Source: Schmidtea polychroa (Eukaryota). Taken from it: a stretch of DNA of 64,000 nucleotides. The translations under genes and the position numbers were made by a program. The stretch spans positions 68,758,001 to 68,822,000 of the forward strand of contig CM097885.1 of assembly GCA_044892525.1 (NCBI GenBank), read 5' to 3'. The notes below the pieces were generated by a model. That model worked only from the letters and a program-made list of their open reading frames with translations, had not been told where the DNA came from and ran no database searches. Position 1 is the first letter of the stretch, and the number at the start of each line of letters is the position of its first letter. Positions 744-63,112 of this stretch are shown in pieces.

Positions 744-1107
744 TTCTGATATTATTAGTATGTATAGTGGTAGCCAATCTGGTGGTGATTTACCATATTT
801 TATTGGTAAACAGTACGGATCAGGATGGTTGAGAACAATAGGTAGATTTGCATTGCCTATTCTTAAACGTATCGGTAGTTTTGGTATGAAAACTGCAAAA
901 GATGTTATTATGAATGAACAGAAAATATTACCATCTCTAAAAACAAATGCTTTAGCAGAATTAGGGAAAGTTTTACCCGGGGTTGCAGGTATGTTTCAAA
1001 AACCAGCTCCAGCTCCAGCACCAGCTCATGCTCCAAAACGTAAAAGACATGGAATATCACGTATAAACAAACGAATGAAAGGACATGGAACTATATTTGC
1101 AAAATGA
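736..1107 (+). CDS. Adintovirus pX/pVI-like basic core or membrane-lytic protein
   Basis: QSGG and QYGSG motifs, amphipathic WLRTIGRFALPILKRIG, basic tail, adenain-type site MKGH|G. Overlaps penton and hexon stop/start codons. Confidence 0.75.
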   Translation: MANSDIISMYSGSQSGGDLPYFIGKQYGSGWLRTIGRFALPILKRIGSFGMKTAKDVIMNEQKILPSLKTNALAELGKVLPGVAGMFQKPAPAPAPAHAPKRKRHGISRINKRMKGHGTIFAK

Positions 1108-2324
1108 TTTGTGGTAAATCCGAATTATGTATATTTGATAGACCATCGCCCCAGGCTGTAATAGAATTTGGGGCATTTGAGGAAGTTTTTCCTATGAATT
1201 CAATTACAGATAGTAGAAACGATATCGAGTTTTATATTAATGGTTCACAAACCGAATATTTAGATTTGAACGATACTTTATTGACTGTTCAGATTAAGGT
1301 TGTAGATAAAGATAGAAAAGTTTTGGATGCCAATGCAGATGTAATACCGAACTATTTCCTGTTTCATACTCTTTTTAAAGATGCAGTGTTGGGATTTAAT
1401 AATATCAAGATTGAGGGCGGAAATAATACATTCATTCACAAGGCATTAATAGAAACTATTTTAAATTACAATTCCGATACTAAAAATACATGTCTTACTC
1501 CTATGGGTTATGGCAGTGATGATGAAATAAAAAAGTGGGTAAAAGGCTCAAAGGTTTTCACCATGTGCTCATCATTACAACTTGATTTTATGGATCAACC
1601 GAAATATTTACTACCGGGAGTTAATGTACATATTAGATTGAAAAGGTCTGATTCTGCATTATCTCTTACTAGTGCAACTACTGCACCAATATGTCAATTA
1701 GTTGATGCAAAATTATTGGTGAGAAGAGTTCGAGTAGACCCCTCTGTATTAGCAGGTCATCAATTGGGTCTTAATTCAAAACATGCAATTTATCCATTAA
1801 AAACAAAGGAAATTGTACAATTTGCTATTGCTAAAGGTGCTTCATCATTCTATAAAGAACAAATATTTGGTGACAGAAGAATGCCTAATTTTATTCTGAT
1901 AACATTTCAAAGTGAAGCACAATATAATGGATCATATACTGCGTCCAGCTCAATTTTCAAAAACTTTGGTGTTACATCATTGACTTTGTCGAAAAATACT
2001 GATTATAGAGAAACATATATTCAAGATTTCGAGAATGACAATTACTGCGCGACATATATGCAGAGTATTGTTAGAAATCTGGGTTATTTAGATAAAAATT
2101 TGAATTGCGGAATAACACTAGAAGATTTTAAAAGCAAATACCCATTTTTTACATTTGTTTTAGCCCCTGATTTTGATTTAAATCAAAGTCAATTACCACA
2201 AAACGGGAATTTACGACTGGATATAAAGTTTGCAAAAGCTATTACTGAACCAGTACATGTTATAATATATGGAGTATTTGAAAATGAAGTTCAAATTACT
2301 GCAAATAGAACTGTGTTGGTATAA
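1104..2324 (+). CDS. Polinton/adintovirus major capsid protein (hexon)
   Basis: N-terminal CGKSELCIFD...IEFYINGSQTEYLDLNDTLL and C-terminal GNLRLDIKFA patterns of the double jelly-roll Polinton MCP; 406 aa, intact. Confidence 0.9.
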   Translation: MICGKSELCIFDRPSPQAVIEFGAFEEVFPMNSITDSRNDIEFYINGSQTEYLDLNDTLLTVQIKVVDKDRKVLDANADVIPNYFLFHTLFKDAVLGFNNIKIEGGNNTFIHKALIETILNYNSDTKNTCLTPMGYGSDDEIKKWVKGSKVFTMCSSLQLDFMDQPKYLLPGVNVHIRLKRSDSALSLTSATTAPICQLVDAKLLVRRVRVDPSVLAGHQLGLNSKHAIYPLKTKEIVQFAIAKGASSFYKEQIFGDRRMPNFILITFQSEAQYNGSYTASSSIFKNFGVTSLTLSKNTDYRETYIQDFENDNYCATYMQSIVRNLGYLDKNLNCGITLEDFKSKYPFFTFVLAPDFDLNQSQLPQNGNLRLDIKFAKAITEPVHVIIYGVFENEVQITANRTVLV

Positions 2325-2737
2325 ATGTATATTGAAACACAAAAAGTTGTCATGGAGTAAGTTGTTTTTTTATACTCTGGATTTATTTAAATAGTTCTGT
2401 TCAGGTCAATAAAATCGGAAAACAGATATTGGGAAATGAATTTGTTGGAGTTTTTCCTCTTGATAAAATTCCATATTTGAGCAATAATCAAGCAATAATC
2501 GTCAATACTCAATCGTCTCATCTTGGTGGAGAACATTGGATAGCTATATATATGAAACCTGGTAATATATTCGTGTTCGATCCTATGGGTTTTTATTACC
2601 CGGCTTTGTTGATATCAAAACTACAAACAATGGGAAAACCTATTGTGTATAATAAAACTATGTTTCAAAATCCCTTGACCCAAACATGTGGTCAACATTG
2701 TTTAGCTTGGTTATTGTACAAAAAATTTGATGTTTAA
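2325..2737 (+). CDS. Adenain-family cysteine protease, probably two exons (2325-2356, 2395-2737)
   Basis: FVGVFPLD, GEHW (His), FDPMG (Asp) and QTCGQHC (Cys) motifs. Removing the 38-nt GTAAGT...TTTAAATAG intron gives MYIETQKVVMDSVQVNKIGKQILGNEF. Confidence 0.85.
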
Positions 2738-3188: not shown

Positions 3189-3260
3189 CATCGACAAATT
3201 TAAAATTTGTCACAATTATTCTAAATTTTTCAAATTTCGATTTCAATTTTAGAAATCTAA

Positions 3261-3925
3261 ATGGCTAACAATAATAAAAATGGAATTCTAAGAAATCTTT
3301 TGACGACAATGGGTAATTTATTTTATTATATTTTATTTTATTATTATTTTAGAACCATTCGATTGGTACGATGTAACGGAAGATGACTCGATATTAACAG
3401 TGGATAAGATCTTCGGTAAATTTATTATTATAATTTTTAATAAATTAATTTTTTTTTTTCAATTCAGAAAATGTTTACAATAGCGACGATGATGTCGTCT
3501 TTATCGGGGAAAGTAATGCTCCTAATAAGATCTTCGGTAAATTTATTATTGTTTTTTTATTAAATTATTTTTTTTTTCAATTCAGAAAATGTTTATAATA
3601 GCGACGATGATGTCGTCTTTATTGGGCAAACTGATGCCCCTAATTATGCCCCAGTTCTCAAAGAAAAAAGTAAATTTTATTATTATTTCTATTAAATTAA
3701 TTTTCATTTCAGAAACTGTTTTAAATGTCTTTAATGTTGATATTGACGAAGAAGAAATTAATGTCCTCGCATCGGATGATGGTGAAATCTGTGAGAATGA
3801 TGGGCATATCTCATCGGATGATGATCAAATCTCAGAGAATGATGGGCATATCTCATCGGATGATGATCAAATCTCAGAGAATGATGGGCAAATCTCTGAG
3901 AATGATTCCGACATGGAATCACTAT
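3261..3925 (+). CDS. Spliced acidic protein with tandem SUMO-interacting motifs (exons 3261-3312, 3353-3415, 3468-3536, 3586-3669, 3713-3925; 3' end unresolved)
   Basis: Four GT-AG introns (40, 52, 49, 43 nt), all phase 1, join an open frame MANNNKNGILRNLLTTMEPFDWYDVTEDDSILTVDKIFENVYNSDDDVVFIGESNAPNKIFENVYNSDDDVVFIGQ... A fifth donor GTAAG is at 3926. Confidence 0.8.
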
Positions 3926-4029
3926 GTAAGAAATATTTATTTTTATATATATTTTGTTTTTTTTTATTTATATGTTAAATTTGTAATAACTTATTTAAAT
4001 ATTTTGATAAAAAACTTTTTTTAAATATT

Positions 4030-4612
4030 TTAATAAAAATTATGATGAAACTTCTGAAGAAAATGATTTTATGATTTATGATGAAAATATACCGAAAAAT
4101 TATGAAGAAAAATGATTATATGTTTTATAAAGAAAATGATGAAAATATGACGAAAATTATGATGAAGAAAATTATGAATTTATGATGAAGAAAATGATGA
4201 AAATATGACGAAAATTATGATGAAAATGATTTACAACCAAAATTATGATGAAAATGATTTATGATGATATAATGAATTATGATGAAAATATGACGAAAAT
4301 TATGATGAAAATGACTTACAACCAAAATTATGATGAAAATGATTTATGATGATATAATGAAAATGAATTATGATGAAGATGTGACGAAAATTATGATGAA
4401 AATGATTTATGATGATATAATGAAACTTCTGAAGAAAACGATTTTATGATGAAAATTATTTATACCGGAAATTATGAATTTATGATGAAAATTATTTATG
4501 ATGAAAATGATGAAAATATACCGAAAATTATGAATTTATGATGAAAATTATTTATGATGAAAATGATGAAAATATACCGAAAATTATGAATTTATGATGA
4601 AAATGATTATAC
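4030..4612 (+). repeat. Degenerate tandem repeat of AAAATTATGATGAAAATGAT-like units
   Basis: Visible repetition; no frame stays open. Confidence 0.8.
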
Positions 4613-4789: not shown

Positions 4790-4869
4790 TAATGTAGTCT
4801 ACAGTAAGCATGTAGCTACATAGTAGTCTGCAGTGGGCATGCAGCTACTTCTATTTAATATAATAATAA

Positions 4870-4919
<50 letters not shown>

Positions 4920-5135
4920 TTAATATATAAATAATAATCAGACCCCGCCTACAGTAGTTTGCAGTAAGCATGCAGCTACATAGTAGTCTGCAGTGAGCAT
5001 GCAGCTACTTTTCTTTTATATAATAATAATATAAATAATAATAATATAAATAATAATAATAATCAGACCCTGTCTACAGTAGTTTGCAGTAAGCATGCAG
5101 CTACATAGTAGTCTGCAGTGAGCATGCAGCTACTT
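4790..5135 (+). repeat. Array of TAGTCTGCAGTGAGCATGCAGCTA units separated by (TAA)n, upstream of PolB
   Basis: Several near-identical copies; each contains the inverted repeat CTGCA...TGCAG. Confidence 0.85.
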
Positions 5136-5210: not shown

Positions 5211-5470
5211 TATAAATAATAATCTGACCTATCTACTAAAATCTCTCTAATATTCTATCGAATATATTAACCTATTTTCTATAATGATTTATCATCATTT
5301 GTTATATAGTTCATTTGAATTAAATAACAAATGATGATAAATCCTTGTAGAAGTAACAATTAATAACAATTAGAAAAAGAATAAAACTTTAATTTTATTA
5401 TTTAACAGGTAGACTATATCCGAACTATTGCCAATCTTCAATTGGACATAGTGATAAATGTCATAGAACA

Positions 5471-8400
5471 ATGACAAAATATTACCGAAAAAAGTTTAAT
5501 TCGGTCAACTTTTTTATATGCCCCAAATGTGTAACGAGCGAAAAAATAAAATATAGGGAATTTTTTAATAAACATCATAATCACTTAGGGCAATTTTCGA
5601 TATCAAAAAATGTTTTATTTAAAAAAATAAATAAAAAAAAATTACAAAAAAATTTATCAAAAAATTTACCAAAAAATACTATTAAAAAAGATATAAAAAA
5701 AGATATTAAAAAAGATTTAAAAAATATTAAAAAAAATATTATAAAAGAAAAAACAGATTCTATTAAAAAAGATACTATAAATATTATTAAAAAAGATATT
5801 ATAAATATTAAAAAAGATTCGATTAAAAGACCTGCTGGTTTAATTAAAAATTGCATTCCGAATAAATTATCGCGACCTGAAGTGATAGTCATCAGCAAAG
5901 ATGAATGTGTAGCTTCAACATCTTTCACACAACACGCACCCATTACACAACACGCACCCATTACACAACAAGAAGTGATAGTCATCAATGATGAATGTGT
6001 AGCTTCAACGTCTTTCAACATATGCCAAATAGGCGGCTCTTTGTTTGAACCTATGGTAGAATCCGATTTGAACGGATCGCGTAAAACTTTAAAATTTGAT
6101 ATTAGAAATCAAAACTTAGTAAAAATAGCCCTAACATCAAAAATTGAAGATAGATTAATAGAGGAAATAGAAAAGATGGGCAATGTAAAAATTCAATTCA
6201 CAATTTTAATTAAATTTGAAAAAGATGGGGAGATCCGGGATAATTATTTTTCAAACAATGCTCAAGTTTTTACATCAAACTTTATAAACGAGGGGGTGAG
6301 CAAATCAAATGAAAAGATTGAGCAATTCACCTATTTAGGAAGCGGGTGGCGAGTAGTGAATATTTTAGAAATAGATTTTATTTTAACGAAATACGCACCC
6401 GTTAGTAGATTATCCGGACATAGCTATATAAAAACCCCATCAGCATTAAAATTAAAACATGCAATAATTAATGTTAAAAACAACGACCATAAGTGCTTCT
6501 TGTATAGCATTCTTGCACTTTTAAAAAGAGAAGAAATAGGTCGTAATCACCAAAGAGCCGCCAAATATATAGAATTTTTACCTCTATTAAATTATGACGA
6601 AGACACTGATTGCCCGATGAGGCTATGCAACATTCCCAAATTTGAAAGAAAAAATAGAGATTTAAACTTGAGCATAAACGTTCTGTCTTATAAGCCAGCC
6701 AGTTCTGATTTAGATATTTCTGAGGATTATGTAGCTCACCACCCTCATCTTAATATAGTACATCGCTCCAAGGTTATAGACGGTAGACCAATTTATTTAT
6801 TACTTTTGAGTAATAAAGATAAATATCATTATACAGCCGTGACAGACTTGGACAAATTAATGAATTGTCATGAAAATGAAAATGTAAATGTTCAAATAAG
6901 GTGTAACTGGTGCCCACATTGTTTAAATGGCTTTAGATATAAGAATGCTTTCGATCAGCATGTTGCTCTATGCTGTAAAAATCAGACTGGCACAACATTG
7001 TATACACTTCCTAAAAATAAAGATTTATTATTCACAGATTACGCAAAAACAGTTACACCTCCCTTCGTAATTTATGCCGATTTTGAATCGGTTTTACCAG
7101 AACATGAAACATATCATCAAATACATTTACCCATATCAGCAGGTCTTTTATTAATTAATAATTATACACACACTAAATTTTATTATTATTTTTTTGGACC
7201 TAATTGTATTTTGGATTTTTTGAGGAAAGTGGAGGAAATTGCTGTCACAATTGTCCTGCCATATTATGATCTTGAAGGTCGTAAAGGTATGTCTACTTTG
7301 TCTTTTGCTCAGGAGCGTGCCTTTCGATCTTCCACTATTTGTTATTTGTGTAAAAAATCTATTATTAATCCTGTGAGAGATCATTGCCATTTTACAGGTA
7401 GATATGTCGGAGCGGCATGTAGGAAATGCAATGTCTCTCGCAGGATTAATAAATTGTTACCTGTTGTCTTTCATAATTTACGAGGCTATGACCTCCACCA
7501 TATTTTAAAACATGGTCTCAGTGATTTTCCCCTTTGGGAACTTAATATTATACCTACCTCTACAGAAAAATTTATATCTTTAATTGCATATATTAACAAA
7601 TTGCCTGTTCGTTTTATTGACAGCATGCAATTTGTTAATTGTTCTTTAGCAAAAGCTGTGAAAACCTTAACTACTTTTCCTTTGACTTCGTCTGTCTTTC
7701 AAGGGTCGATGATTCACTCTAAAGGTATCTTTCCATATAATTTCGCTACTTCTTTAGATGTTCTTGAATCGACTTTAGAATTACCTCCTATTTGGTCTGA
7801 TGTTACGGAAGATCAGTACGCTGAGGCTCAACTAATTTGGAGTCAGCATAACTGTAATAATTTGTTAGATTATATGTTAATCTACCTAAAATTGGACGTA
7901 TACCTCCTCGCAGATTATTTTCAGCAATTCCGCGGTAAGGCAATTGCTTACAATGGTCTGGATCCTCTTAATTTCTACGGGATTCCCGGTATGTCATGGG
8001 CCTCAGCGCTTATGACATTAACGGAACCAATAGAACTTCTGCAGGACATGGAAATGTATAATTTCTATGAGGGAGGTATCCGGGGTGGGTTAACATTTGT
8101 TAACAAACATTACACGGCTACTTCAGATGATACAGAATTATTGTACATTGATATAAATAATCTGTATGGTTGGGCTCTTAGCCAAAATCTTCCGTATGGT
8201 GATTTTTCTTGGGTGAATAATAACTTGAATGATGTTTTACTTGAATGTATGAACACGGATATTGATAACCTTCCATATGGGTATACTATGGAGGTCGATA
8301 TCGATATTCCGGAATGTGTGCATGACTTTTTGAATGATTTTCCGCTTGCGCCGGAAAAGTTGTGCCCGCCTAATTCAAAAGTTGAGAAGCTTATGCTTAC

Positions 8401-9445
8401 GCATTGGCCAAAGAGGAACTATGTTCTTCATTGGAGGCTTCTCAAATTGTATATAGAATTAGGTGCGGTTGTTGTAAATATTCATAGGTGTATAAAGTTT
8501 AAACAAGGACCTATCTTTAAATCCTACATAGACACCAACACCACTTTACGATCTCAGTCTACTAGCGAGATATATAGGGACTTGTTTAAATTGTATAATA
8601 ACTCTCTTTACGGTAAATCGGTTGAAAATTTGAAAAAAAGAATGAATTTGAGGTTGTGTAATTCATCCGAAAAGATGATAGTATACTCCTCAAAGCCGAC
8701 TTTCAGAAAGTCCATAAGAATCGATAACGATCTGATTGCGGCACATTTAGAAAAAGATGTGATTTGTTTAGACAGACCTAGCTACATTGGTCAAACAGTA
8801 CTAGATCTGTCTAAACTGCGGATGTACCAGCTCCAATATATTGATTTGGAGAAGTACAGACGCCAATATAAATGTATCATAAATATTATTGCCGGTGATA
8901 CCGACAGTTTCTTTTTGGAAATAAAAAATTTAAAATTAACAACTTTATTACCTCAGATGATCTCAGATAATTTATTGGATACGTCAAATTACGATCCAAC
9001 CCACCCCTTGTATAGTAGGAACCTTGACTCGGTCATCGGGAAGTTTAAAGATGAGAGCAAGGGATTAGGGTATTCTGAATGGGTTTTCTTACGCCCTAAA
9101 TGTTATAGTCTTTTAGGTAGTAAGGAAACAGTAAAAGCGAAGGGGGTTAAATTATCTGGGACATCAATAACTCATGAAACATATCTAAATTGCTTTAATT
9201 CAAATCAGGTGATTTCTGTACCGCAGACTAGAATAGGTACTAGAAATCACCAACTTTTTACTTTTAAAAATTCGAAAATTGCCCTAAGTAATAATGATGA
9301 TAAGCGCGCGTGGCTAGGAAAAAACTTAAGTTACGCATTTGGGCATTATTTAGGAGTTGACGAATTAAGCGAATATGATGAGGAATTCAGTGCAGCTCCA
9401 AGTCCCAGTTTTGACGACAGCGAATGGGACGAAGATCAAATTTAA
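5471..9445 (+). CDS. Protein-primed family B DNA polymerase with endonuclease VII-like insertion
   Basis: Exo motifs IYADFES, FHNLRGYD and YLKLDV; polymerase motifs DINNLYG, KLYNNSLYGK, AGDTDS and PKCY; RDHCHFTGRYVGAACRKCN His-Me finger; 1324 aa, intact. Confidence 0.95.
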   Translation: MTKYYRKKFNSVNFFICPKCVTSEKIKYREFFNKHHNHLGQFSISKNVLFKKINKKKLQKNLSKNLPKNTIKKDIKKDIKKDLKNIKKNIIKEKTDSIKKDTINIIKKDIINIKKDSIKRPAGLIKNCIPNKLSRPEVIVISKDECVASTSFTQHAPITQHAPITQQEVIVINDECVASTSFNICQIGGSLFEPMVESDLNGSRKTLKFDIRNQNLVKIALTSKIEDRLIEEIEKMGNVKIQFTILIKFEKDGEIRDNYFSNNAQVFTSNFINEGVSKSNEKIEQFTYLGSGWRVVNILEIDFILTKYAPVSRLSGHSYIKTPSALKLKHAIINVKNNDHKCFLYSILALLKREEIGRNHQRAAKYIEFLPLLNYDEDTDCPMRLCNIPKFERKNRDLNLSINVLSYKPASSDLDISEDYVAHHPHLNIVHRSKVIDGRPIYLLLLSNKDKYHYTAVTDLDKLMNCHENENVNVQIRCNWCPHCLNGFRYKNAFDQHVALCCKNQTGTTLYTLPKNKDLLFTDYAKTVTPPFVIYADFESVLPEHETYHQIHLPISAGLLLINNYTHTKFYYYFFGPNCILDFLRKVEEIAVTIVLPYYDLEGRKGMSTLSFAQERAFRSSTICYLCKKSIINPVRDHCHFTGRYVGAACRKCNVSRRINKLLPVVFHNLRGYDLHHILKHGLSDFPLWELNIIPTSTEKFISLIAYINKLPVRFIDSMQFVNCSLAKAVKTLTTFPLTSSVFQGSMIHSKGIFPYNFATSLDVLESTLELPPIWSDVTEDQYAEAQLIWSQHNCNNLLDYMLIYLKLDVYLLADYFQQFRGKAIAYNGLDPLNFYGIPGMSWASALMTLTEPIELLQDMEMYNFYEGGIRGGLTFVNKHYTATSDDTELLYIDINNLYGWALSQNLPYGDFSWVNNNLNDVLLECMNTDIDNLPYGYTMEVDIDIPECVHDFLNDFPLAPEKLCPPNSKVEKLMLTHWPKRNYVLHWRLLKLYIELGAVVVNIHRCIKFKQGPIFKSYIDTNTTLRSQSTSEIYRDLFKLYNNSLYGKSVENLKKRMNLRLCNSSEKMIVYSSKPTFRKSIRIDNDLIAAHLEKDVICLDRPSYIGQTVLDLSKLRMYQLQYIDLEKYRRQYKCIINIIAGDTDSFFLEIKNLKLTTLLPQMISDNLLDTSNYDPTHPLYSRNLDSVIGKFKDESKGLGYSEWVFLRPKCYSLLGSKETVKAKGVKLSGTSITHETYLNCFNSNQVISVPQTRIGTRNHQLFTFKNSKIALSNNDDKRAWLGKNLSYAFGHYLGVDELSEYDEEFSAAPSPSFDDSEWDEDQI

Positions 9446-9675
9446 ATAGAAAAAACTTTATATTTTTGATTTATAAAAACTTGTATAGTGATTTCATGAT
9501 TTATAAAAAATTGTATAGAAACTTTTATTTAAAAACTTGTACAAAAACCTGTATATTGTATAAAACTTGTATTTATATATACATATTCAATAAAATTTTT
9601 AATCAGATTTTTTTTTAATTTTTTAAGTATTTGGTGTTTTATTATAATTTTTTATATTTAATGGTGATTTTTATA

Positions 9676-9798
9676 TAGTCTGCAGTGAGCATGCAGCTAT
9701 AACAGTTTTTTATATAGTCTGCAGTGGGCATGCAGCTATATGTTTTATATAGTTTGCAGTGAGCATGCAGCTATATGTTTTATATAGTCTGCAGTGAG
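9676..9798 (+). repeat. Tandem ~33-bp array of the same TAGTCTGCAGTGAGCATGCAGCTA motif downstream of PolB
   Basis: At least three full copies and a partial one before the N gap. Confidence 0.85.
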
Positions 9799-9976
9799 NN
9801 NNNNNNNNNNNNNNNNNNNNNNNNNNNNNNNNNNNNNNNNNNNNNNNNNNNNNNNNNNNNNNNNNNNNNNNNNNNNNNNNNNNNNNNNNNNNNNNNNNNN
9901 NNNNNNNNNNNNNNNNNNNNNNNNNNNNNNNNNNNNNNNNNNNNNNNNNNNNNNNNNNNNNNNNNNNNNNNNNNNN
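9799..9976. other. Assembly gap (N run) inside the repeat array
   Basis: Run of N. Confidence 1.
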
Positions 9977-10232
9977 TTGCAACGGGTACTAGTCATGCTT
10001 ATTATTGTTATACATTTGATGGTTACAATTTCTATATTTTGATTGGTTATCACAATTTTATAAATGTAAAAACAAAAGTAATTTATTTATTAATAATGAT
10101 TTATACAAATAAAACCGATGAATGTGTAACACATTTGGTAACTTTATTATTTTGTCAATATTTTTTTATATATGGCATTTATAGCAAGGAAGAAATAAGG
10201 AAAAATTAAGTCCGACCGATTCCGAAATTTCA

Positions 10233-10724
10233 ATGAAATTTTTTTACAACACAGTTGAAGATTTTATAAATAATCATGATGCTTACAGTGATAAGCAACT
10301 CATAAATATTTTAAAGATTTTCAAACATTCCTCTATTGAATATTTGTTTGATTTATTTAATTATGAGAAATCCATTTTAAAGTTATCTTGTTATTTAATG
10401 TACTTAGAAAAAATAGCAGTAAACAATGATTCACTGAATGAATACTTTTGGAGTTGTATGTTTTTAAGGTTGAAACCTGGATATAGTAGATTGATTTATG
10501 ATTGGATAGCGAAAGCCGATTTGATTGAAAATAAGCTAACGAAAAAACTGAGCGATGTTAAGAAAAGGTATTTAACTTGCTCAATTTGTAAAGAAAATCG
10601 AGTTTCGGTTTTGTATTTACCGTGCGGTCACGTAATTGTTTGTTCTAAGTGTAACGAGAAGATTGTTCGCAAGTGTCAAGCTTGTTCAACACTGATTAAT
10701 GAATATCATACTATATACATGTAA
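10233..10724 (+). CDS. RING-finger protein (IAP/MDM2-like C-terminal C3HC4 RING, no BIR), Polinton accessory gene
   Basis: CSICKENRVSVLYLPCGHVIVCSKCNEKIVRKCQACSTLI at the extreme C-terminus; lies between PolB and the TIR. Confidence 0.85.
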   Translation: MKFFYNTVEDFINNHDAYSDKQLINILKIFKHSSIEYLFDLFNYEKSILKLSCYLMYLEKIAVNNDSLNEYFWSCMFLRLKPGYSRLIYDWIAKADLIENKLTKKLSDVKKRYLTCSICKENRVSVLYLPCGHVIVCSKCNEKIVRKCQACSTLINEYHTIYM

Positions 10725-10799
10725 ATAAATATTTAGTTTACCTTTGTTAATTTTACATTATTTTATTGTTTAAATAAATGTATGTTTTGTTGATTTGTT

Positions 10800-12108
10800 G
10801 AGCGTGACCAGTACCCTTGTGAGCATTACCCATAGGGGGACAAAATATTTTGTCGGATAGACTCAGAGTATATAGACTCGGTGTATATAGATTAATAATA
10901 ATAATAATAATAATAATAAGATATATGGCTCATTCGAAAGGTCTTGGATTGAGCTTTAAAATGAGCTATCGATTATTAATTTTCGTTGGCGGGAACTTTG
11001 AAAAAATTAAAAATAAAATAATAATATTTTTAAAAATAATAATATTTTTTAAAAATAATAATATGACCTTGATGAGTCATCGCGATGACTCATATGACCT
11101 TGGGAATGACCTTGGATGAGTCACGTGACCTTGAAAGTGACCTTGATGAGTCATAGGATGACTCAGATGACCTTGAAAGTGACCTTGAAAATTTTGATGA
11201 GTCATCGGCTGAGTCATATGACCTTGAAAAAAATTTTTCAAGGTCATATGAGTCATACTATGAGTCATATGACCTTGAAAATGTCCTTGATGAGTCATAG
11301 GATGACTCAGATGACCTTGAAAAAACTTTTTCAAGGTCGTATGCGTCATACTATGAGTCATATGCCCTTGAAAATGACCTTGATGAGTCATATTATGAGT
11401 CATATGACCTTGAAAAAATTTTTCAAGGCCATATGAGTCATACTATGAGTCATGGTCTTTGTTTCAGTGACCTTGATGAGTCATATGACCTTGGAAAAAA
11501 TTTTCAAGGTCATATGAGTCATATTATGAGTCATATGACCTTGAAAATGGCCTTGATGAGTCATGTTCTTTGTTTAAATGACCTTGAGAAAATTTTTTGA
11601 CCTTGATGAGTCATGTTATGAGTCATATGACCTTGAAAATGACCTTGATGAGTCATAGGATGAGTCATGGTCTTTGTTTAAATGACCTTGAAAATTTTGA
11701 TGAGTCATAGGATGAGTCATGGTCTTTGTTTCAATGACCTTGATGAGTCATATTATGAGTCATACGACCTTGAAAAAATTTTTCAAGGTCATATGAGTCA
11801 TATTATGAGTCATGTGTCCTTGAAAATGGCCTTGATGAGTCATGGTCTTTGTTTAAATGACCTTGAGAAAATTTTTTGACCTTGATGAGTCATGTTATGA
11901 GTCATATGACCTTGAAAATGACCTTGATGAGTCATAGGATGAGTCATGGTCTTTGTTTCAATGACCTTGATGAGTCATATGTCTTTGTTTAAATTTGACC
12001 TTGAAAAAAAATGTACTTTTAGACTTAGAATATTTTTGAAAATCTTACCGACGGGGGGGGGTACTGTGCTAGCGGTGCCCTGTGCCAGCGGTGCCCAATC
12101 CATCTACT
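10800..12108. repeat. Right terminal inverted repeat of the Polinton
   Basis: Contains the core motif shared with the TIRs of 49892-53255, a motif array, a G-tract and terminal CTACT. The inner boundary is approximate because the left TIR is absent. Confidence 0.75.
11064..12003. promoter_or_regulatory. Dense array of TGACCTTGA (NR5A/ERR-type) and TGAGTCA (AP-1-type) motifs
   Basis: More than 20 copies of each by eye, often adjacent as TGACCTTGATGAGTCAT. Function is inferred. Confidence 0.6.
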
Positions 12109-12265
12109 AATATTAAATATTTCATAACATTGAGCACGCATATAGAAATTTTAATTTTGAGAGAATGTAAAAAAGTGAGATATAGTTTAAAAAATTCTTT
12201 TTTCGGTTAGTTTTTCTATTTCTTTATTATTTCTTTTTATTAAAAAAAATTTTAATATTGAATAG

Positions 12266-13077
12266 AACATTGCTTTGTAATATCATACAATAAGTATGAA
12301 AATCCCGGAAAAGATCGTAAAACCGGAACTCATAAAGATTTAATAAGAATTAAGCAGATTTTTATCAAATTGGGTTACGAAATAGTAGTTGAAATATTTA
12401 TTAAAGTTTCTAAAGATATATTTGGTTGTAGAAAATATATAAAAACCAAACAACGGTACAATTGAAAGACAATCTTTCTTTGAACTTGAACGAAATTCAA
12501 GATTCATCTGATATTGTTTTTACTTTTGTTCTGAGCCACGGAGAAAAAGATGGTTTCTATACATACGATGGAATGATAGAGTTTTTGGAATTTAAAAAAA
12601 TTTATTGCGAAAATATTTTAAAACAAATTCCAAAAATAATTTTATATCAATGTTGTCTTGGGGATAAATTCAATGGAGGTTTGAATACTTTTTGATATAT
12701 GCATTTATACTTTAATTTCAGAACACCCTTCAAATGATAATGAAAACATTTACTTTGAATCACCACTGAAAATTCAGATAGAAAACCCAACTAAAAAAAT
12801 CCTTCCCAGATACTCCAATTTCTTCGAAGGTTTCTCTACTGTTCCTGAATATAAAAGTTGCCGAGATGTTACCGGTAGTCCTTACATACAGACAGTGCTA
12901 GATGTTTTCGAGGAAAATCATACAAAGTATACCATAACAGATCCTGATAGTCCCCCTAAGGACATTCGTGAGCAGATGGATGAAGTACAAGTGCGTATGG
13001 CTAAAAAAATACTGGAGGGTTCTCATTTTCAAATTCCGTCGTATACAACTTGTCTTATTGAAAAAGTTTATCTTTAA
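12266..13077 (+). CDS. Caspase-family protease (exons 12266-12384, 12432-12678, 12722-13077; 5' exon not found)
   Basis: Spliced frame HCFVISYNKY...RKTGTHKD...KLGYEI|KIYKNQT...VLSHG...IILYQCCLG...FSTVPEYKSCR...GSPYIQ...FQIPSYTTCLIEKVYL. Introns are 47 and 43 nt, GT-AG. Confidence 0.88.
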
Positions 13078-14517
13078 GAAACAACAATAGCATAAATTTT
13101 TATTCACCGTGTTTATTAGTATAAACCGTTTTTAGTGTCTTTTTTGTCATTTTCGAATCGTAAAAAAAATTATCGAAGATAACAGTGATTGCAAATAACT
13201 ATTCGTGTTTAGAATTATCTTTTCTGTAGAATCCACAATTGGGAGTATTCTCAGAAAGAATTCAGAGTAAGACAGACTTTTAGCTGATTTCTTGAAACCC
13301 AAGTTCTTTGATCTGCATAAAAATTATAATTTATAAGGAAATAAAAATAAAATTATTTTAAAATTGTATAATGCACACATCGTTACAATAGAAAATTTAT
13401 TATATTAATTCCAATATAATATTTTTGAATAAATATTTGTTTAATTCAATCAAATCTGAAAAAGATAAGTTATTAAATGTGAGCTGCTAAATTCAGACTC
13501 AATCTCCCCTTGTTGAAAAAAAAAGTTCCTTGGTTAGAACAAAACCTATGGCTCATACGGTGGCTCCTACTTCTTAATGGTCAACTTAGACTTAGGTTAT
13601 CACTCATGGTATTTTGCCAAAGTTCAACCTTGACAGTTCTTATACTCAACTGCCATCCTCTAACAATAATAATAATAATAATAATAATAAACTCTGACTA
13701 CGACTCAAAATGATCAACTAGGACTTTTATAGATGAAATTGTAGAGAAAATCTTAACATTAAGTAAATGATAATTCTTTTCTCTGACCACTTAAAGCGGA
13801 TGCCAACGTTAAAGCTTAAACATTAGGCAATATAAATTTATGCTACTTTGCTTTCAGTAAATAATATGTCCGCAAAAAAGATATAATGTTCCAGTCTTTG
13901 TTAAGTGGCATTTGCAGCATATTAAAATACTATTTTTCTACCTTATACTTCCTCTTTAGCTTATTTATCAATATTTAAATATTTGTCAAGCGAAGATGTT
14001 GTGCCTCAGGCTTCGACATCTCGAGATATTTATTCTACTCTGCCGTCCCTAAAGAAGATTTCAGAGTATATTTTTTAATGTCATATAATTTACATAGATC
14101 GGTTAATAACGCATCTTCGTTCAATATTTTTATTGAATAATTATTTAATTCTGGGTTGAAACAAAATTTATCAATATAATCCTCATTTAGATAAATTATT
14201 TAATTTGGAATTACTCATTTCTCAAAATTTTCCATAACAAATATATACATATATACGCGCGCGTGTGTGTGTGTGTGTGAGGAGATGGATTTGTTCCATC
14301 CACATCATGTCCCATAAATATAACAAGTTTTACAAAGTATGTGTACCCAAAAAATGCCGCTTGATCTAACATAAAAATCTGATGCTTAACCTGATCAAGT
14401 ACTCAAGATGATTTCCAACCATTTCAGTTATTCTACATTTATAAGCAGTATTTTCTTAAGAATCAAACCAAAAACAAATTGTCAAACCCGGTGAAAAATT
14501 ATGAATCACACTAGAGC

Positions 14518-25830: not shown

Positions 25831-28766
25831 CAGTGTTTCGAACCCCGAAAATTATGGGTTCGGGTTCGGGTTCGGGTTCAATGGAATAAAATTTAATGGG
25901 TTCGGGTTCGGTTCGGGTTTGGGTTCGGTTCGGGTTTGGGTTCAGGTTCAAATTAAAAAAAGCGAAATTTTTAATTAATATTTTATTTTGAATATATAGA
26001 AATATATATCAGTATTAAAGTATTATATAATATTATTTAATTTATTTTTGGAAAAAATTTTCATTAAGTCTAACAAATAAAATGTTTCTTAAAGAATCAA
26101 CACTTAAATGTATTCTTTGTGGAGCTAAAATTAGTTTCAGCGCAGAAAATGCCCTCTCGACGCTGACTTGTGTAGCAGGAACAGCAAATACAATCTGAGC
26201 AGCTTCATAAAGTAATGGTGTTTCCATTTTTTTTTGCTCCCAGAATTCTAAAATATTTTTGTCTTTAGGAAGCCTGGGATAGCTTTCATAAATATCGATT
26301 TCGGTTTTGAAAGCCATACAAGCATTGGATTTGTTAAAATTTTTCGGCATTGATGCTGCAGCTGATATAGAATTTTTTTCTTTGTTCTTTAGCATTTCTT
26401 CCAGCATGTCTGCTTCTTCATCTGAGGAACTAGAGATTAAATTGGAAGTGATAGTAGTTTCGCTAGTTCGTGCTTTATTTTCAGTTTCCAGATGTAAATC
26501 TTTTAATTTTCTTATTGTGGATAAAATGTGATTTTGAGCTTTGGTTGTATTATCATCATTAAGCATCAATTTGAATCTAGGATCTAAATATATGGCGGCG
26601 TTTAAAAGTTCATTATCTATAAATGATTTTTCTCGTTTAATAATATTTGAATATAAATCTGCACCTAATTTTTTATTCGTGATTTTTTGTAAATCTAATT
26701 TAAACTTCAACCACAGCCCATAAAAATCTCCTAAATTCATCTGCTCATTTTGTAACTGCAAAGTTAACTTTTAAATGGCTCTAAAATTTCAACAAAATCT
26801 GAAATAAATTGCCACATATTTTCATTCATGCTTAGATCAGGATCTACTACATCTAAACAAAAAGTTTTATAATCCAACAAGCGTTTGAGCATATCGAAGG
26901 TGGAATTCCACCGAGTTGGACAATCCAACATAGCTTTCTTTAAGCCCAACTTTTTAGCTAATGAAGCTCTATTAGGTGTCCTCAACTTTTTGGAAATATC
27001 TCTGCATGTGGCAATCTTTTTTTTTACTGAAGAGTTACTAGTAGTGTCATAAACTGCTAATTGAGCAGTATGGGCTACGCACCTAAAATGAATAATATTA
27101 CCATATAAATTAGACAACATTTCCAGACCTTCTTCTTCATTCTCAACTATTAATTCCTCATCTTCATCTTCTACTTCTTCAAGGTCAGAAACTTCTTGAA
27201 ACTCATCTCTTAACAGCTCAGCCGCTTTAAGCATGTTTCTACCATTATCTGAAGTAACTGAATAAACTTGGCTTAATTGTATATCGTAAGATTGGATTAC
27301 TTCAATTATCACATTTTTTATGTAATTAGCTGTTTGACGATCGTCAACCTCATGCATGGCTAAAGTTCTCAAATTAATTTTTCCATTGTTAATGAACTGA
27401 ATATTTATGCCAATTACGCTTCTACCAAGCCGGGATGCTGAATCAATTTTTACAGATATTAATTTTTTTTTCAACTCGCCTTTAATCAAATTTTTCATTT
27501 CAATAGCCTTATTATTTACTAAATCCTTAATATTTTCAGAATTTACAGCCAGTTTTAATGATTTCATTATCGGTTCTATTATATCACGCATGCCAGAATC
27601 TTTGAAAATAGTAAACGGGCGCCCATTAACGGTAACTAATTTTATGCAGGCATCAGTGAAATATTTTGATGACATATTAATTTTAATCAAATTGAAATAA
27701 TTTTCAATGGAAACTGAATTTGTATCCTGAAGTTTAAACTTTTTGGTGGTTTGTGATGTAGACTCTTCAGTTATATTTCGATATTCATCAGGATGTTTCC
27801 GTTTGATATGGCGACCCAGATTTGCAGTATGTTTACCTTTCATAGAAAAAGAGCATTTTGTACATATTGACTGGTCTTTGATAGAATCATATTCGAAAAA
27901 TTTTTTTAAATGGTTTGCTGACATCTGAAGGACAAAAATTTTTTTTTAATATAATTTATAATTAAAAATAAAAACCGTAAAATGGAAAATTTTTTAATTA
28001 ATTACTACAAAAATTTAAGCACCTAAATTTATGTTAAAAAAGTTCCCACAAACATATATTCGAAGAAATATATTCGCAAGTTAAAAAAAAATTAATTAAA
28101 AAAGCGCGCTGGAATAAAACAAATGCATACATAAGTTGTAGTTAGTTATAGTTACCTTAATGTTTTATCCAAGTTTTTTCTGTAATACAGTATTTTTAAT
28201 TTTTTAATATTTATTTTCAATTAATTAATTTATTTAGCATCACACTTTTTTAAATATTACACACTTTTTAAATAATAGTATAATAATCAGGCTACAAATT
28301 TCTTTGACTGTTGAAATTGGAATAATTTTTCTTTCTGATTTTTAAATTTAATTTGAAAATGGAGAAAATAATATAATCACTATAACAACAATCTAGATTT
28401 GATGAACACTAGATGAAAATGATAAAAATAATATACATAAATCGCGACGATGTAATCAATACAAAAGTTTGTAACAAAACCAAATGTAAATTTGTTCATG
28501 TTCATTCACGCACGATTTACGGAACATTCATGTTCTGAGAAACAAACAAAAAATAAGAAAAATGTTTCTTAGAAAAAAATACATTTTTTCATTTTTTTTG
28601 TTATTCAGGAATAAAAAATTTCTCAAAAAAAATTAAAAAAAATTAAAAAAATGTTTTTTTTATAGAACCTGAACCCGGTTTTTGAATGGGTTCGGGATCG
28701 GTTCGGGTTCACAAATTTGTTTGAACCGGAGCGGGTTTTGGGTTCGGGTTCGGGTTCGAAACACTG
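25831..28766 (-). mobile_element. hAT DNA transposon, full length (2936 bp)
   Basis: TIR CAGTGTTTCGAACC; perfect 8-bp TSD GTTTATTT (25823-25830, 28767-28774); subterminal GGGTTC repeats. Confidence 0.95.
26042..27924 (-). CDS. hAT transposase (Ac/ZBED4-like) with one in-frame stop at 26764-26766
   Basis: BED finger CTKC...RHIKRKH, KIDS, TSDNG, CVAH, TRWNS and SVERAFS. ORFs 26764-27924 and 26042-26761 are in the same frame. Confidence 0.9.
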
Positions 28767-36817: not shown

Positions 36818-39611
36818 GTAACTGTGTCGTCATACTTAGTGGTCACTGGTTGCTAACACACACACATCTAGTCCAGTACTAATCATACAACACACACATA
36901 CTACTATTATGTGAGAGTCCAGTACTAATGATTTGTGTATAGTTCAACACACACACACATCGACTACTATTATGCGAGAGTCCAGTACTATTTACTACTC
37001 TATGTGAGGATCCAGTACTATTCATACAACACACATCGACTACTAGTCTATGTGAGGATCCAGTACTATTCATACAACACACACACACATCGACTACTAG
37101 TCTATGTGAGGATCCAGTACTATTCATACAACACACACACACATCGACTACTAGTCTATGTGAGGATCCAGTACTATTCATACAACAACAACACACACAC
37201 ACATCTAGGACACTGGTGGTCTATATAAGAATCCAGTACTATTGACTACTCTATGTGAACATCAGTACTATTCATACAACCGATTACGACCAGTGCTAAA
37301 ATACAAGCACGACCAAGACCACGACCACGAACACGAACACGACCACGACCACGAGTACATCGATACAAACACTTCTCTGAGAGCTGATTCAACCAATAAC
37401 CTAGATAAGAACTACTTTAAGCTTTTAAATAATAGTCTTTATGGAAAATCAGTGGAAAATCTTAAAAAACGGATGAATTTGAGATTATGTAATTCTGCTG
37501 AAAAAATGATTACATATTCTTCAAAGCTGTCTTTTAGAAAGTGTATCAAAATTGATGACAATCTGATTGCAGCACATCTGAATAAAGATTTGATTTGTTT
37601 AGATAGACCTAGTTATATAGGTCAAACAGTTCTAGATCTATCGAAATTAAGGATGTATCAGCTTCAGTATCTTGAATTAGCTAAATATCGAAATCAATTC
37701 AATTGTAAGATTGACATTGTTGCTGGCGACACTGACTCTTTCTTCCTTGAAATTAAGAATTGCAAGTTAACTACACTTCTACCTGCAATGATTTCAGATA
37801 ATCTTTTGGATACTTCCAATTATGACTCTAACCATCCATTGTATTCAAGAAATCTTGACTCAGTAATAGGTATATTCAAAGATGAGAGTAAGGGACTTGG
37901 ATATAAAGAATGGGTTTTCTTGAGACCAAAATGCTATAGTCTTTTAGGTGAAACTGAAAGTAATAAAGCAAAAGGAATTACTTTGAAAGGAACTGAGATA
38001 AAACATCTTTCTTATCTTGACTGTTATGAGAACAATAAAATCTTTTCTGTAACTCAAACTCTAATAGGAACTCGAAATCATCAGTTGTTTACGTTTAAGA
38101 ATTGTAAAATTGCGTTAAGTAACAACGATGATAAACGACACTGGGTTGGTAAAAATAAAAGTTTTGCATACGGGTATAATTTAGATGTCAACCAAGATGA
38201 TGATGCCAACTATGAAGATGATCCAGAATTGATCGAGATTGATTTTAATGATCGAGATTTTATATGAAATAAATTTTTGTATTTTGAAAACTGTCTTTTT
38301 ATTATTTAATTAAATTAATTTAAAAATTATAGCTTTGGTTTGAGAATAAATCTGTTTGCTTCAAAAGTAATTTTATAAGTAATCGTGCTTTGATTTATAT
38401 AAATTATTATTATTATTATTATTATTTTGTGGGACTGATGGCTAAGTGGGAATTTACTTTTTGGTTTTTTGTTTTGACGTTAGGTATGAGGTTCAATTCC
38501 AAGTATGGGCGACTTTTTTCAAAATTAATTTTTACATGTTATTTCTAATATAGATCGAATCAGCATGCTTTATTTGCTATGAATTGAAATTTTCATAAAA
38601 ATCGGTTAATTATTTTTACTTAAAGGTTCATAGTATTTTCTCACCTACTGGCATAAAATGCAGTAAACAATCATTAAATAATAATTGATATTAATTTTCA
38701 GACGATTTGGGGATTTATTTTATTATACTTTGTGATTTCATTAAATATTTTGTGTTGTACCCTTTAAATAACAATAGAAAAATTTCATCTATTGACCATT
38801 TTTAATATAAGGTATGCAAACGTTATGAAATGTATAAAACAAGGAAAATGATCCATTTATAATACATAGAAACTAATAGTAGTAGTAGTAGTAGTAGCTG
38901 TCGTTGTCGTAGTCGTGGTCGTGGTTGTGGTTGTGGTCGTGGTCGTGGTCGTGTTCGTGGTTTTATTTTAGCATTGGTCGTACTCGGTTGTATGAATAGT
39001 AGTCAATAGTACTGGATTCTTATATAGACTACCAGTGTCCTAGATGTGTGTGTGTGTTGTTGTTGTATGAATAGTACTGGATCCTCACATAGACTAGTAG
39101 TCGATGTGTTTTGTATGAATAATACTGGATGTTCACATAGAGTAGTCAACAGATCCTTATATAGAGTAGTCGATGTGTGTGTGTATTGTACTATACACTA
39201 ATCATTAGTACTGGACTCTCACATAATAGTAGTATGTGTGTGTTGTATGAATAGTACTGGACTAGATGTGTGTTAGCAACCAGTGACCACTAAGTATGAC
39301 GACACAGTTACCATGGTATTGAGTCATCAATAAGTGGTCAGTTAGGAACAGGTTAGTATATGACGTAATGGATACGTGAGTGGTCAGTTAGTAACAATGT
39401 GTGTATGACGTAATGGGCACGTGACTGGTCAGTTAGTAACCATGTCTGTATTACGTAAAGGTCACCGTGTGGTTAGTTAGCAACTGACCTTTATATTACA
39501 TAATGGCCACGCGATTGGTCAGTTAGCAACAGTGTGTATATTACGTAATCGGTCATTATTACATAACCGATATCCCCCCTTTTGTATCTGAAGGGCTCAC
39601 ATCCCTCTACT
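36818..39611 (+). mobile_element. Internally deleted Polinton derivative: inverted arms around a PolB C-terminal fragment
   Basis: 36818-~37350 is inverted relative to ~38900-39311. The right arm continues to terminal CTCTACT at 39611; the outer part of the left arm is missing. Confidence 0.75.
37357..38267 (+). pseudogene. pPolB C-terminal third (second, diverged family)
   Basis: From YIDTNT onward it aligns with 5471-9445 (KLLNNSLYGK, AGDTDS, PKCY); fused in frame to TIR repeat sequence. Confidence 0.9.
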
Positions 39612-40670: not shown

Positions 40671-41438
40671 GAATCCCGGACAAAATACCGAAAATTAAAA
40701 AAACTAAAACAAAAACACCGAAAATAAAATATCGAATAGAAAAAATATCGAATAGAAAAAATATCGAAAACAAAAATATCGAAAACAAAATATCGAAAAA
40801 TTAATAAAAAATTTCGAGTTTTTGGTTTCGGTGTTTTATCCGGATCCCATTAACAATTATTATTATTATCAATATTAGTGAAAACTTAAAATAATTTTTA
40901 CACACTAAGTTATGGGGTAGAGAATTATTATATGTTTGCAATATTCTGTGTTTACCTTTACAGGAAGTTGTCAATAAGGAGCGATAATTTACAATTTTAT
41001 ACATACATTCTATATACACATACCTTGTTTAACATGGGTGTATATACTCCTAGTTTATCCGACAAAATATTCTGTCCCCCTATGGGTATTGCTCATATGG
41101 GTAATGGTCACAAGGGTACTACTCACACTCAACATGTCGCAAGGGTATATTAATTAAGGTTAGTAAATAAAACCTATCACACATACTATTTTCGAAATTA
41201 GTTTTAAAAGTCAACAAATGTTAAAATTGTTACATCAACAACCACGCCTCCTCAAATGTCAAAATTTACAAACACGCCCCTCAAATGCTTTAAAAAATGC
41301 CTTAAAAATGCTTTCGATGTTTATGTTTTCGATATTTTATTTTTCGATGTTTTTGCATTTCGAAATTATATTTTTCGGTGTTTTTGTTTTCGAAGTTTTA
41401 ATTTCGAGTTTTTGGTTTCGGTGTTTTATCCGGATCCC
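40671..41438. mobile_element. Mutator-like composite element (768 bp) with captured DNA
   Basis: Perfect 9-bp TSD TAAAATTAT (40662-40670, 41439-41447); ~130-bp sub-repetitive TIRs; extra internal right end at 40848. Confidence 0.75.
41040..41150 (+). repeat. Isolated Polinton TIR core fragment
   Basis: TATCCGACAAAATATTCTGTCCCCCTATGGGT...GGTCACAAGGGTACT matches 51060-51140 and the reverse complement of 10808-10862. Confidence 0.8.
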
Positions 41439-49891: not shown

Positions 49892-50966
49892 AGTAGGTAG
49901 TTATGTGCACTCTAGATCCAGATACCCCCCTATTTTTTTTAAAAATTTTTTTAAAAGACCCCCACCACATAATTTTCTTTTAATTTTTAAAATATCCCCC
50001 CTACTTTTTTTTTTAAATTTAAATTTTTGTTTTAATTATCGATTACGTAATAATTTCATTTTTTGTTTTAATCATTGATTACGAATTTTTTTTGTTTTAA
50101 TTATTGATTACGTAATATTTTAATTTGTTTTAATCGTCGATTATGTAACAATTCCTAAATTTTTAAAACGTTGATTACGTCATTGATTTTAATTTTTTAT
50201 GTCATTATACTTGAAATTTAATTTTCTGTTAAATGAGACTATGATGTAATCAAAATTCTGAAATTTCATTTTTAGTACACCATTTTTAAATTTACACATC
50301 TTTTTAAACAAATTGAGATATGTTCACTCAAACAATATATAGATAGAATTTTAATCTCTATAAAATGACATCATTATTTACTGCAAATTCATAATCATAA
50401 CACCTTAAACAATGTATTTTTCAGCCAACTTTTACATACACACATATTTTCATCTTTTAAAAAAAAAATACAAATTATTCATCTATACTTAACTCATAGT
50501 AAATAATTATATTAAAAGACATATTAAAAGATGTATTAAAAACTAAACATTTATTAAAATCCTAGAGAAATTCGATCACTATCTAATTTCCAAATCGGTG
50601 ATATGACATCTTTCTCATCTATTTTATATCCCTGTATTGACATATTTACAAACCAGCTTTCCCCATCTTTATATTCAATTTTATATAACAAAGACATATT
50701 GCATACAAAGACACACATGACTCATCATACTTTTTAAATATATTACGTTGCGGTATTTTAAAATTTAAATTTATTTTAAAAACTTGTTTTGACGGTTAAG
50801 TTGACAAAATAAAATTATTGCACATACTTTGTATTATCATATATAGTCTATCAGACAAGATATTCTGTTCCCCTAAGGGTAATGGTCACAAAGGTACTGC
50901 TAAAACTTTAACATATTATTACACACAATGTATAAAAAATCTTATTAGTGTCCACACATGCAACAA

Positions 50967-51032
<66 letters not shown>

Positions 51033-51576
51033 TTCAAAGTATTATAATTATATATAGTCCGAGTCTATCCGACAAGATATTCTGTCCCCCTATGGGTAAT
51101 GGTCACAAAAGTAAAGGTCACAAAGGTAAAGGTCACAAATGTACTGTTAAAAATATTCAAGACAGAACTTTAACAAAGAAATTCTAAATATTATACTTTA
51201 AATATACACTAAAATTTATTAACACATTGGGTAATGGTCGCAAAGGTAAAGGTAACTAATGTACTGCTCGCAAAGGTACTACTCACATTCAACGTGTCGT
51301 AAATTATTTTCAAATACAATTTCAAAGTATTATTATTATTTATTATTAAAATTAAAATTATTATTAAATTCTGACCAACTTAAATCAATGAAGGGGTAGG
51401 ACAAAAATATATTACGTTGCGGTATTTTAAAATTTAAATATATTTTAAAAAACTTATTTTGACACTAAAGTTTACTTATTTAACAAAGACATAATTATTG
51501 CACATGCTTTGCATAAATATTATTATTATTTTTTGAATTTTCAATATTTTCTTTCAAAGTATTAACACGCGCGGGA

Positions 51577-51621
<45 letters not shown>

Positions 51622-52177
51622 GTATTTCCCCTATAATAAGACCTACCTAGAAAATAAGACCTAGCATGAATTATTCGCCCACAAAAAATATAAGACCTAC
51701 CTTGAAAGATCTGTTTACTTATTTACATAACGAAAAAAATAGTAATTTTAATTCAAATTAGCCATAAATATATGCTTTAAACTTTACGTTGAATGTGAGT
51801 AGTACCTTTGCGAGCAGTACATTAGTAACCTTTACCTTTGCGACCATTACCCAATGTGTTAATAAATTTTAGTGTATATTTAAAGTATAATATTTAGAAT
51901 TTCTTTGTTAAAGTTCTGTCTTGAATATTTTTAACAGTACCTTTGCGACCTTTGTGACCTTTACCTTTGTAACCATTACCCAATGTGTTAATAAATTTGA
52001 GTGTATATTTAAAGTATAATATTTAGAATTTCTTTGTTAAAGTTTTGTCTTGAATATTTTTAGCAGTACATTTGTGACCTTTACCTTTGTGACCTTTACT
52101 TTTGTGACCATTACCCATAGGGGGACAGAATATCTTGTCGGATAGACTCGGACTATATATAATTATAATACTTTGAA

Positions 52178-52246
<69 letters not shown>

Positions 52247-62809: not shown

Positions 62810-62827
62810 TGGTGAGCCCGACGTGAT
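62810..62827 (+). promoter_or_regulatory. Primer-binding site, tRNA-Trp
   Basis: TGGTGAGCCCGACGTGAT is one base from the complement of the animal tRNA-Trp 3' end (ATCACGTCGGGGTCACCA); 7 nt after the LTR end. Confidence 0.85.
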
Positions 62828-63112
62828 CGCAAGTCGGCGGAAATTTATTGAAAGTTAGTGAAAGAATTAATTATTGGAAAATATTACCGACGTGATTGAA
62901 AGTCGGAGGAAAAATTATTGGAAGTTAGTGAAAAAGAAATTATTAAAAAAATTTAGTACCGACGCGATAGAGAGTCGGCTGAGAATCATTGAAAGTAGTG
63001 AAAATTTGTGAAAATAGTGCTAACGAGATTATTAAAGGCTATTATTGGAAGATTTGAAAGAAGTTGAAAAGTAATTTTAAATTATTGTTTAACGTTTGAA
63101 GTTTAGCTCAAA

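Follow-up and report, generated by a model that had tools for sequence, protein, structure and literature searches.

The right terminus (position 12108) of a Polinton/Maverick element in Schmidtea polychroa is preceded, at a distance of 104 bp, by a real and unusually dense array of words that are, by sequence, optimal sites for AP-1 and NR5A/ERR factors. This array is probably the element's own cis-regulatory module, a host-factor enhancer (probability roughly 0.58). The evidence for this viral-type reading is drawn from sequence, and comes from the pattern of substitutions within the array and from its position relative to the terminus. All positions refer to the window, the whole stretch of 64,000 nucleotides that was analysed.

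The array (11064-12004) holds 38 NR5A/ERR-type 9-mers (27 perfect and 11 with one mismatch) and 37 AP-1 sites (one mismatch allowed), for a total of about 75 sites. This count follows the removal of five two-mismatch receptor-like matches, which are junctions between an AP-1 site and a third word, and of one two-mismatch AP-1-like match, which is a receptor site. Exact copies of the receptor word TGACCTTGA number 26 in 11064-12003 (23 plus, 3 minus; a 27th reaches 12004), and exact copies of TGAGTCA number 36 (33 plus, 3 minus), of which 32 have complete A...T flanks. At the frequencies seen elsewhere in the window, 0.015 and 0.15 copies, respectively, would be expected in 940 bp. The remark in the earlier note that the two words are often fused holds (10 exact fused copies in the same interval). 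The description of about 940 bp made almost entirely of the two words was right about the density of the array but too strong in its wording, as exact words cover 52% of the bases, or 70% with one mismatch. The proposed alternation gives way to clustering, with 16 AP-1/AP-1 pairs (spacing 12 bp in 15 and 13 bp in one), eight receptor/receptor pairs at 12 bp, and five inverted receptor pairs with spacers of 11-12 bp; 33 of the 38 receptor sites face the same way and five are inverted. Higher-order periods of ~93 and ~279 bp are also present (TRF). The remaining bases are A/T tracts and seven copies of the third word, which has what we take to be an HMG-box-like core. This word could be an old derivative of the receptor site whose core has altered, in which case the statement that the core never changes would lose force; the occurrence of a similar word in the terminal inverted repeat (TIR) of another element and in a related metagenome element (L018:1840-1937, three copies at the contig end) suggests that it is separate from the receptor site. 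ERR-type receptors presumably share the NR5A word, and the candidate binder may belong to either class. Because tandem repeats enrich their own words, the enrichment is trivial on its own, and the substitution pattern and position of the array are therefore the useful tests.

The features of the element and its insertion site are as follows.

1104-2324, plus strand: probable double jelly-roll major capsid protein (feature score 0.98 to a PF21738 cluster, recognition value under the tool threshold)
2336-2737, plus strand: adenain-type cysteine protease (PF00770, E 6.6e-06)
5393-9445, plus strand: open frame of a protein-primed family B DNA polymerase (67% over residues 850-1290 to P0121)
10185-10724, plus strand: RING-finger ORF, the last before the probable TIR, with a C-terminal C3HC4 RING of the IAP type (PF13920, E 1.2e-10)
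10804-10919, unstranded: inner-TIR box and AAT microsatellite (each TIR arm of the 49892-53255 element matches at 83% over 116 bp)
12053-12108, plus strand: G-tract (12053-12061) and terminal segment forming the right terminus; the last five bases (CTACT, 12104-12108) equal those of the other termini, and loose ends lie behind 12108
12109-12185, unstranded: high-copy host repeat, the insertion site, where summed depth is high and loose ends are conserved ahead of 12108 and past 12185
12266-12384, 12432-~12676 and ~12720-13077, plus strand: three 3' coding exons belonging to a caspase-family gene of the host (PF00656; SHG and QCCLG in the translation)

Membership in the Polinton/Maverick group (adintovirus-type) is indicated by the protein-primed polymerase, by the AG...CT-type terminal motif, by the protease and, on weaker evidence, by the probable major capsid protein; a 6-bp target-site duplication is seen at the neighbouring element (49892-53255). 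The polymerase at 5393-9445 has no direct PF03175 match, and P0121 carries this domain at E 2.7e-32. The capsid candidate has 166 homologues and matched no entry in Pfam or PDB. All cassette genes seen lie on the plus strand, and neither an integrase nor a packaging ATPase occurs among the ORFs of that part of the element inside the window, its left part lying beyond it. Continuity of the element is assumed across two assembly gaps (2781-2968 and 9799-9976), the latter falling between the polymerase and the RING gene. No BIR domain was found in the RING ORF, whose similarity clusters contain RING domains only. A repeat unit of ~29-35 bp occurs in direct orientation on both sides of the polymerase gene (4795-5133 and 9669-9798), with AAT runs interleaved upstream, and the region between protease and polymerase (3260-4610) contains a spliced-looking, acidic, low-complexity ORF with duplicated mini-exons.

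Read mapping, which covered 11985-13400 in four of 23 listed runs, demonstrates loose ends with mixed flanks behind 12108 (agreement 0.43). In run X1, summed contig depth, which is not a copy number, reached ~9e5 on 11985-12128 versus ~110-470 over the caspase; the values in run X5 were 1.2-2.7e5 versus 49-100. In 12 of the 15 listed joints, the last receptor site is connected to a terminal segment that varies. The high depth, mixed flanks and joints together indicate that a genuine and highly repeated terminus lies at 12108, and that the outer edge of the array is a feature of the family. The inner edge of the right TIR is probably near 10790, where it appears to be marked by the box at 10804-10919, which has the same orientation as in the right arm of the 49892-53255 element. 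The array is thus very probably bracketed by terminus and inner box within a TIR of ~1.3 kb, as judged from the intact TIRs of this neighbour. Of the "Polinton TIR" in the earlier note, the Polinton end is supported, and TIR status is very probable by homology, the 64-kb window containing no inverted copy of the array and the left end of the element lying outside it. A length of ~1.3 kb falls within the 46-1447 bp given for Polinton/Maverick TIRs in the available text of PMC8097293, which also describes a full (ACT)2 end, whereas the present element ends in CTACT.

Positions 12109-12114 are a candidate target-site duplication on the right flank, with its partner beyond the window. The Polinton sits in a short high-copy host repeat within a caspase intron, making a target preference possible, and both visible 6-bp Polinton targets in the window are A/T-only. 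The inner TIR edge in two families, together with a solo copy, contains a conserved box of ~75 bp (10804-10919, 41038-41118, 50845-50899, 51010-51128, 52082-52200 and 52314-52368), in which a TATA-like stretch is followed by a 16-bp imperfect palindrome and then by a C-run. This box is a candidate for an inward-facing core promoter, a packaging signal, or the site of an element-encoded dimer.

Two further Polinton derivatives in the window allow the position of the array to be compared.

39333-39611, unstranded: right end of a second Polinton derivative, with ~5 copies of a 45-bp unit carrying a CRE/PAR-type bZIP word
49892-53255, unstranded: non-autonomous Polinton derivative with ~1.4-kb TIRs and a perfect 6-bp target-site duplication

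Amongst 24 tandem arrays from the window and 22 fetched loci, all three beside a Polinton terminus have bZIP-type top 8-mers, versus 0 of 21 others (one borderline), with the bZIP class assigned by eye against known consensus sequences. These three arrays lie ~50-130 bp from their termini, and no sequence similarity was found among them. The element at 49892-53255 has PAR/CRE-type bZIP words at 50024-50199 and in its right arm, and, although it lacks genes, it keeps its bZIP array. In the second derivative the array of 45-bp units stops ~50-60 bp before the terminus at 39611 and its left counterpart is missing. This derivative (36818-39611) consists of a 3' fragment of the polymerase gene (71% to the first) between inverted repeats, and its left end is without the terminal ~290 bp, bZIP array included. 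An invariant word resembling a Myb site is likewise retained in its 45-bp unit.

The earlier note saw the same "NR plus bZIP" logic at all of these ends. The words that it listed are present and bZIP arrays do occur at all three termini, but the receptor part is weak there, since the other two elements have only two copies of AAAGGTCA per cluster, which are not conserved in homologous positions; CACGTG occurs once. The arrays are dissimilar, but their full independence is doubtful, since a 116-bp TIR segment with 83% identity is common to the present element and the one at 49892-53255. Judged from the letters of these ends, the recurring feature is a bZIP array beside the terminus, whereas the combination of receptor and AP-1 words is particular to the family described here, the receptor part being strong only there. 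No AP-1 or receptor array was found in the related metagenome loci (22 among the matches listed), of which only two (L003 and L014) appear to reach an end, recognized by eye as CTACT; each has one bZIP site within ~50-130 bp of it. In IMG/VR, the fused 17-mer had no exact match, and the capsid and polymerase queries returned no relative. Other repeats and mobile elements were also observed, including a 21-bp tandem array directly 3' of a related polymerase gene, without AP-1 or receptor words (L008:1370-2230), a hAT transposase in two frames (26042-27945, minus strand), a retrotransposon gag (63107-63748), and a 70-bp repeat with an ACGT-core word (62818-63004).

The closeness of the three bZIP arrays to their termini would also fit a reading in which the sites bound host factors mainly for protein-primed replication or excision at the terminus, which is compatible with an enhancer. 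It would account for a right-end copy that lies downstream of all genes and for the retention of a bZIP array by a gene-less element, and there are viral precedents, since host-factor sites in adenovirus inverted terminal repeats (ITRs) enhance replication (available text of PMC5717082) and baculovirus homologous regions (hrs) are described, in the portions of the literature at hand, as both origins and enhancers. However, the adenovirus replication sites, as far as the same text covers them, are single and lie in the first ~60 bp, with ATF and Sp1 classed as transcriptional, and 75 sites over 940 bp are more enhancer-like. A role mainly in replication or excision is consequently considered unlikely.

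The substitutions within the array bear on whether its words are constrained. The changes in the 11 variant receptor sites fall only at positions 1 (three), 7 (six) and 9 (two), such that positions 2-6 and 8 are never altered and 35 of the 38 sites agree with PyCAAGGPyCPu, the published FTZ-F1 consensus, in which positions 1, 7 and 9 are degenerate (PMC3630131, in the text available). The chance of such confinement is 0.004 when counted by five change types and 5e-5 when counted by nine context-separate events; events were delimited by the author's judgement, and with copies of common ancestry only a small number of events underlies the statistics. Variation at the edges is common to all motifs, but the internal receptor changes are all at position 7 (chance 0.003 to 6e-5). 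In the AP-1 pairs, the spacer of 3-4 nt takes six forms among 16 pairs while the sites are nearly unchanged, and at least six of 11 inferred changes fall on the three spacer columns out of 21 (p 0.002). In the cleanest duplicate pair, mismatches occur at 3 of 166 motif bases versus 6 of 81 outside (p 0.06), and receptor position 7 has changed more often than its counterpart in the AP-1 word, at p 0.017 if events are counted but 0.11 if change types are. Taken together, these data support the view that the array words behave like constrained protein-binding sites, with changes that appear to spare the cores and to gather in spacers and in degenerate NR5A positions.

Published gel-shift data from a flatworm are available for the same word class. 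The FTZ-F1 of Schistosoma mansoni bound seven of seven probes with the main word of the array, to which 30 of the 38 receptor sites belong, versus four of 30 others, and it bound neither of two probes with C at position 7, a variant that is present in three array sites (PMC8673669, S4 table). Because the tested flatworm protein rejected both of these probes, the six position-7 variants may be decayed; alternatively, they may serve another receptor.

Neutral minisatellite evolution, in which a chance two-word unit was spread by slippage or recombination at a linear end and kept perfect by homogenisation, is an alternative reading. Many tandem arrays inside Polintons and in their relatives lack such words, the 93- and 279-bp periods reflect recent duplication, and two of the constraint tests (p 0.06 and 0.11) are non-significant. 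Drift, on the other hand, would not be expected to limit receptor changes to positions 1, 7 and 9, to vary the spacers while leaving the AP-1 sites nearly intact, or to place a different bZIP word at the corresponding spot of each of three elements, making a purely neutral origin improbable.

The array could also have been selected for hairpins or cruciforms, or for the sites of an element-encoded protein, with the likeness to host sites being incidental. The predicted fold has an energy of -194.5 kcal/mol (z -39 versus shuffles), five palindromes of ~46 bp with A/T-tract centres and receptor sites on their flanks recall the palindromes of baculovirus hrs, and stems closed by a variable loop could arise from the AP-1 pairs. 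The strong folding energy, however, follows from the repetition of a near-palindromic word. Compensatory changes were found in 0 of 20 predicted pairs of the five palindromes, several pairs are broken, the central G-G mismatch is retained in 13 of the 16 AP-1 pairs, and most receptor sites share one direction. None of the 23 weak matches in an Rfam search reaches the gathering score. Selection on DNA structure or on the sites of an element-encoded protein is therefore regarded as quite unlikely.

The array does lie about 260 bp from a host caspase exon, as had been pointed out: the first exon in the window begins at 12266, 263 bp from 12003. The two introns of this gene within the window (47 and 43 nt, GT..AG) are skipped in contigs of two runs from two studies (X7 and X9) that are presumed to be RNA and that carry alleles other than that of the window. 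These contigs run upstream of 12266 into other sequence (~790 nt of it in one contig of 1546 nt), and the window contains no match, even with three mismatches allowed, to an 18-letter probe taken from there. A search with the caspase exon returned no longer homologue; the short introns, like the AT content, would suit a planarian host. The transcripts thus splice into 12266 from exons outside the window, which places the caspase promoter at least 12 kb away if the haplotype was assembled correctly. The Polinton most likely sits in a caspase intron rather than serving the caspase, and the link between the two looks incidental, the spliced transcripts starting in upstream exons beyond the window. 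That the array was co-opted as a caspase enhancer, as its proximity to the exon and its apparent location in an intron of an expressed gene might suggest, is hardly credible given that copies of the terminus occur at a great many loci, and the array is therefore older than this insertion, and that both presumed RNA runs enter the gene from such a distance, albeit on other alleles. The IAP-type RING gene (10185-10724) lies ~1.5 kb from this caspase-family gene, which has a non-canonical QCCLG catalytic motif; their closeness is probably due to chance. IAP homologues have been reported in adintoviruses (bioRxiv 10.1101/697771, accessible portion).

Under the preferred reading of a host-factor enhancer, tandem amplification just inside the terminal repeat would build a docking platform for host transcription factors. 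The array would also be present, inverted, at the left end of the element, and, with every observed gene on the plus strand, the gene cassette would lie downstream of that copy. Fos/Jun-type bZIP dimers and a host receptor of the NR5A/FTZ-F1 or ERR type would bind the array and open chromatin, and the bound factors would drive Pol II transcription inward, with the TATA-like element of the inner-TIR box as a candidate core promoter. Related families would keep the position of the bZIP array but swap its words, such that the location and the class of factor persist although the sequence is replaced. The suggestion that such enhancers are hormone-responsive finds no support, because the presence of NR5A/ERR monomer sites need not mean that a hormone acts as ligand. 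A wound response is plausible from the biology of AP-1. In planarians, motif presence by itself failed to predict regulation in the cases described in the available text of PMC10558129.

Comparison with known systems limits the surprise of these observations, as the principle of viral terminal or repeated regions full of host-factor sites is known from baculoviruses and adenoviruses. Baculovirus hrs are likewise non-coding arrays of several hundred base pairs with imperfect palindromes and clustered bZIP (CRE/TRE) sites (PMC13513840, PMC3230853), and the strength of hr enhancers correlates with the number of CRE/TRE sites (PMC13513840), as far as the accessible text of these papers goes. According to the same partial accounts, however, hrs are dispersed in a circular genome, consist of ~72-bp units with a 30-bp EcoRI palindrome, contain mostly CRE-type sites with 0-2 TRE each, and act with the viral protein IE1, whereas the present array is terminal, combines 37 TRE/AP-1 with 38 NR5A-type sites, and gives no sign of an IE1-like partner. 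Without the hr unit, the EcoRI palindrome or the dispersal, the array is not a baculovirus hr. Adenovirus ITRs also place host-factor sites, including the bZIP class (NFI, NFIII/Oct-1, Sp1, ATF), inside a linear protein-primed terminus (PMC5717082, available text), but those ITRs are described there as ~137 bp with single sites, in contrast to ~75 sites for other factor classes over 940 bp. The FTZ-F1/NR5A element of S. mansoni belongs to the same 9-bp word class, is bound in EMSA, and includes one bound site in repeated DNA (PMC8673669, text available); the sites reported in that text are single and upstream of host genes, while those of the array are many and lie in a virus-like element. No account of factor-site arrays in Polinton TIRs was found in the literature covered, a scope outside of which subscription journals, Repbase reports and bioRxiv supplements fall.

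A broader proposal, in which each Polinton family in this animal evolves a terminal "address code", is speculative and rather doubtful. In it, bZIP sites beside the terminus would receive stress or injury signals, and in the present family an equally dense set of NR5A sites, fused to them, would report the cell type, the two acting as an AND-gate on the timing of expression and amplification of the element. If it were true, thousands of ends with dozens of optimal sites could titrate host factors, and the family could spread injury-responsive enhancers through the genome. For animal Polintons/Mavericks, virions had not been observed according to the available text of PMC8097293. In planarians, SMEDWI-2 represses Polintons and differentiation de-silences them, with the activators unnamed in the accessible part of that study (PMC8532177). 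What activates animal Polintons/Mavericks, and in which cells, is the question on which the array bears, and by pointing to two candidate host activators in unusually clean form, the array makes this question testable.
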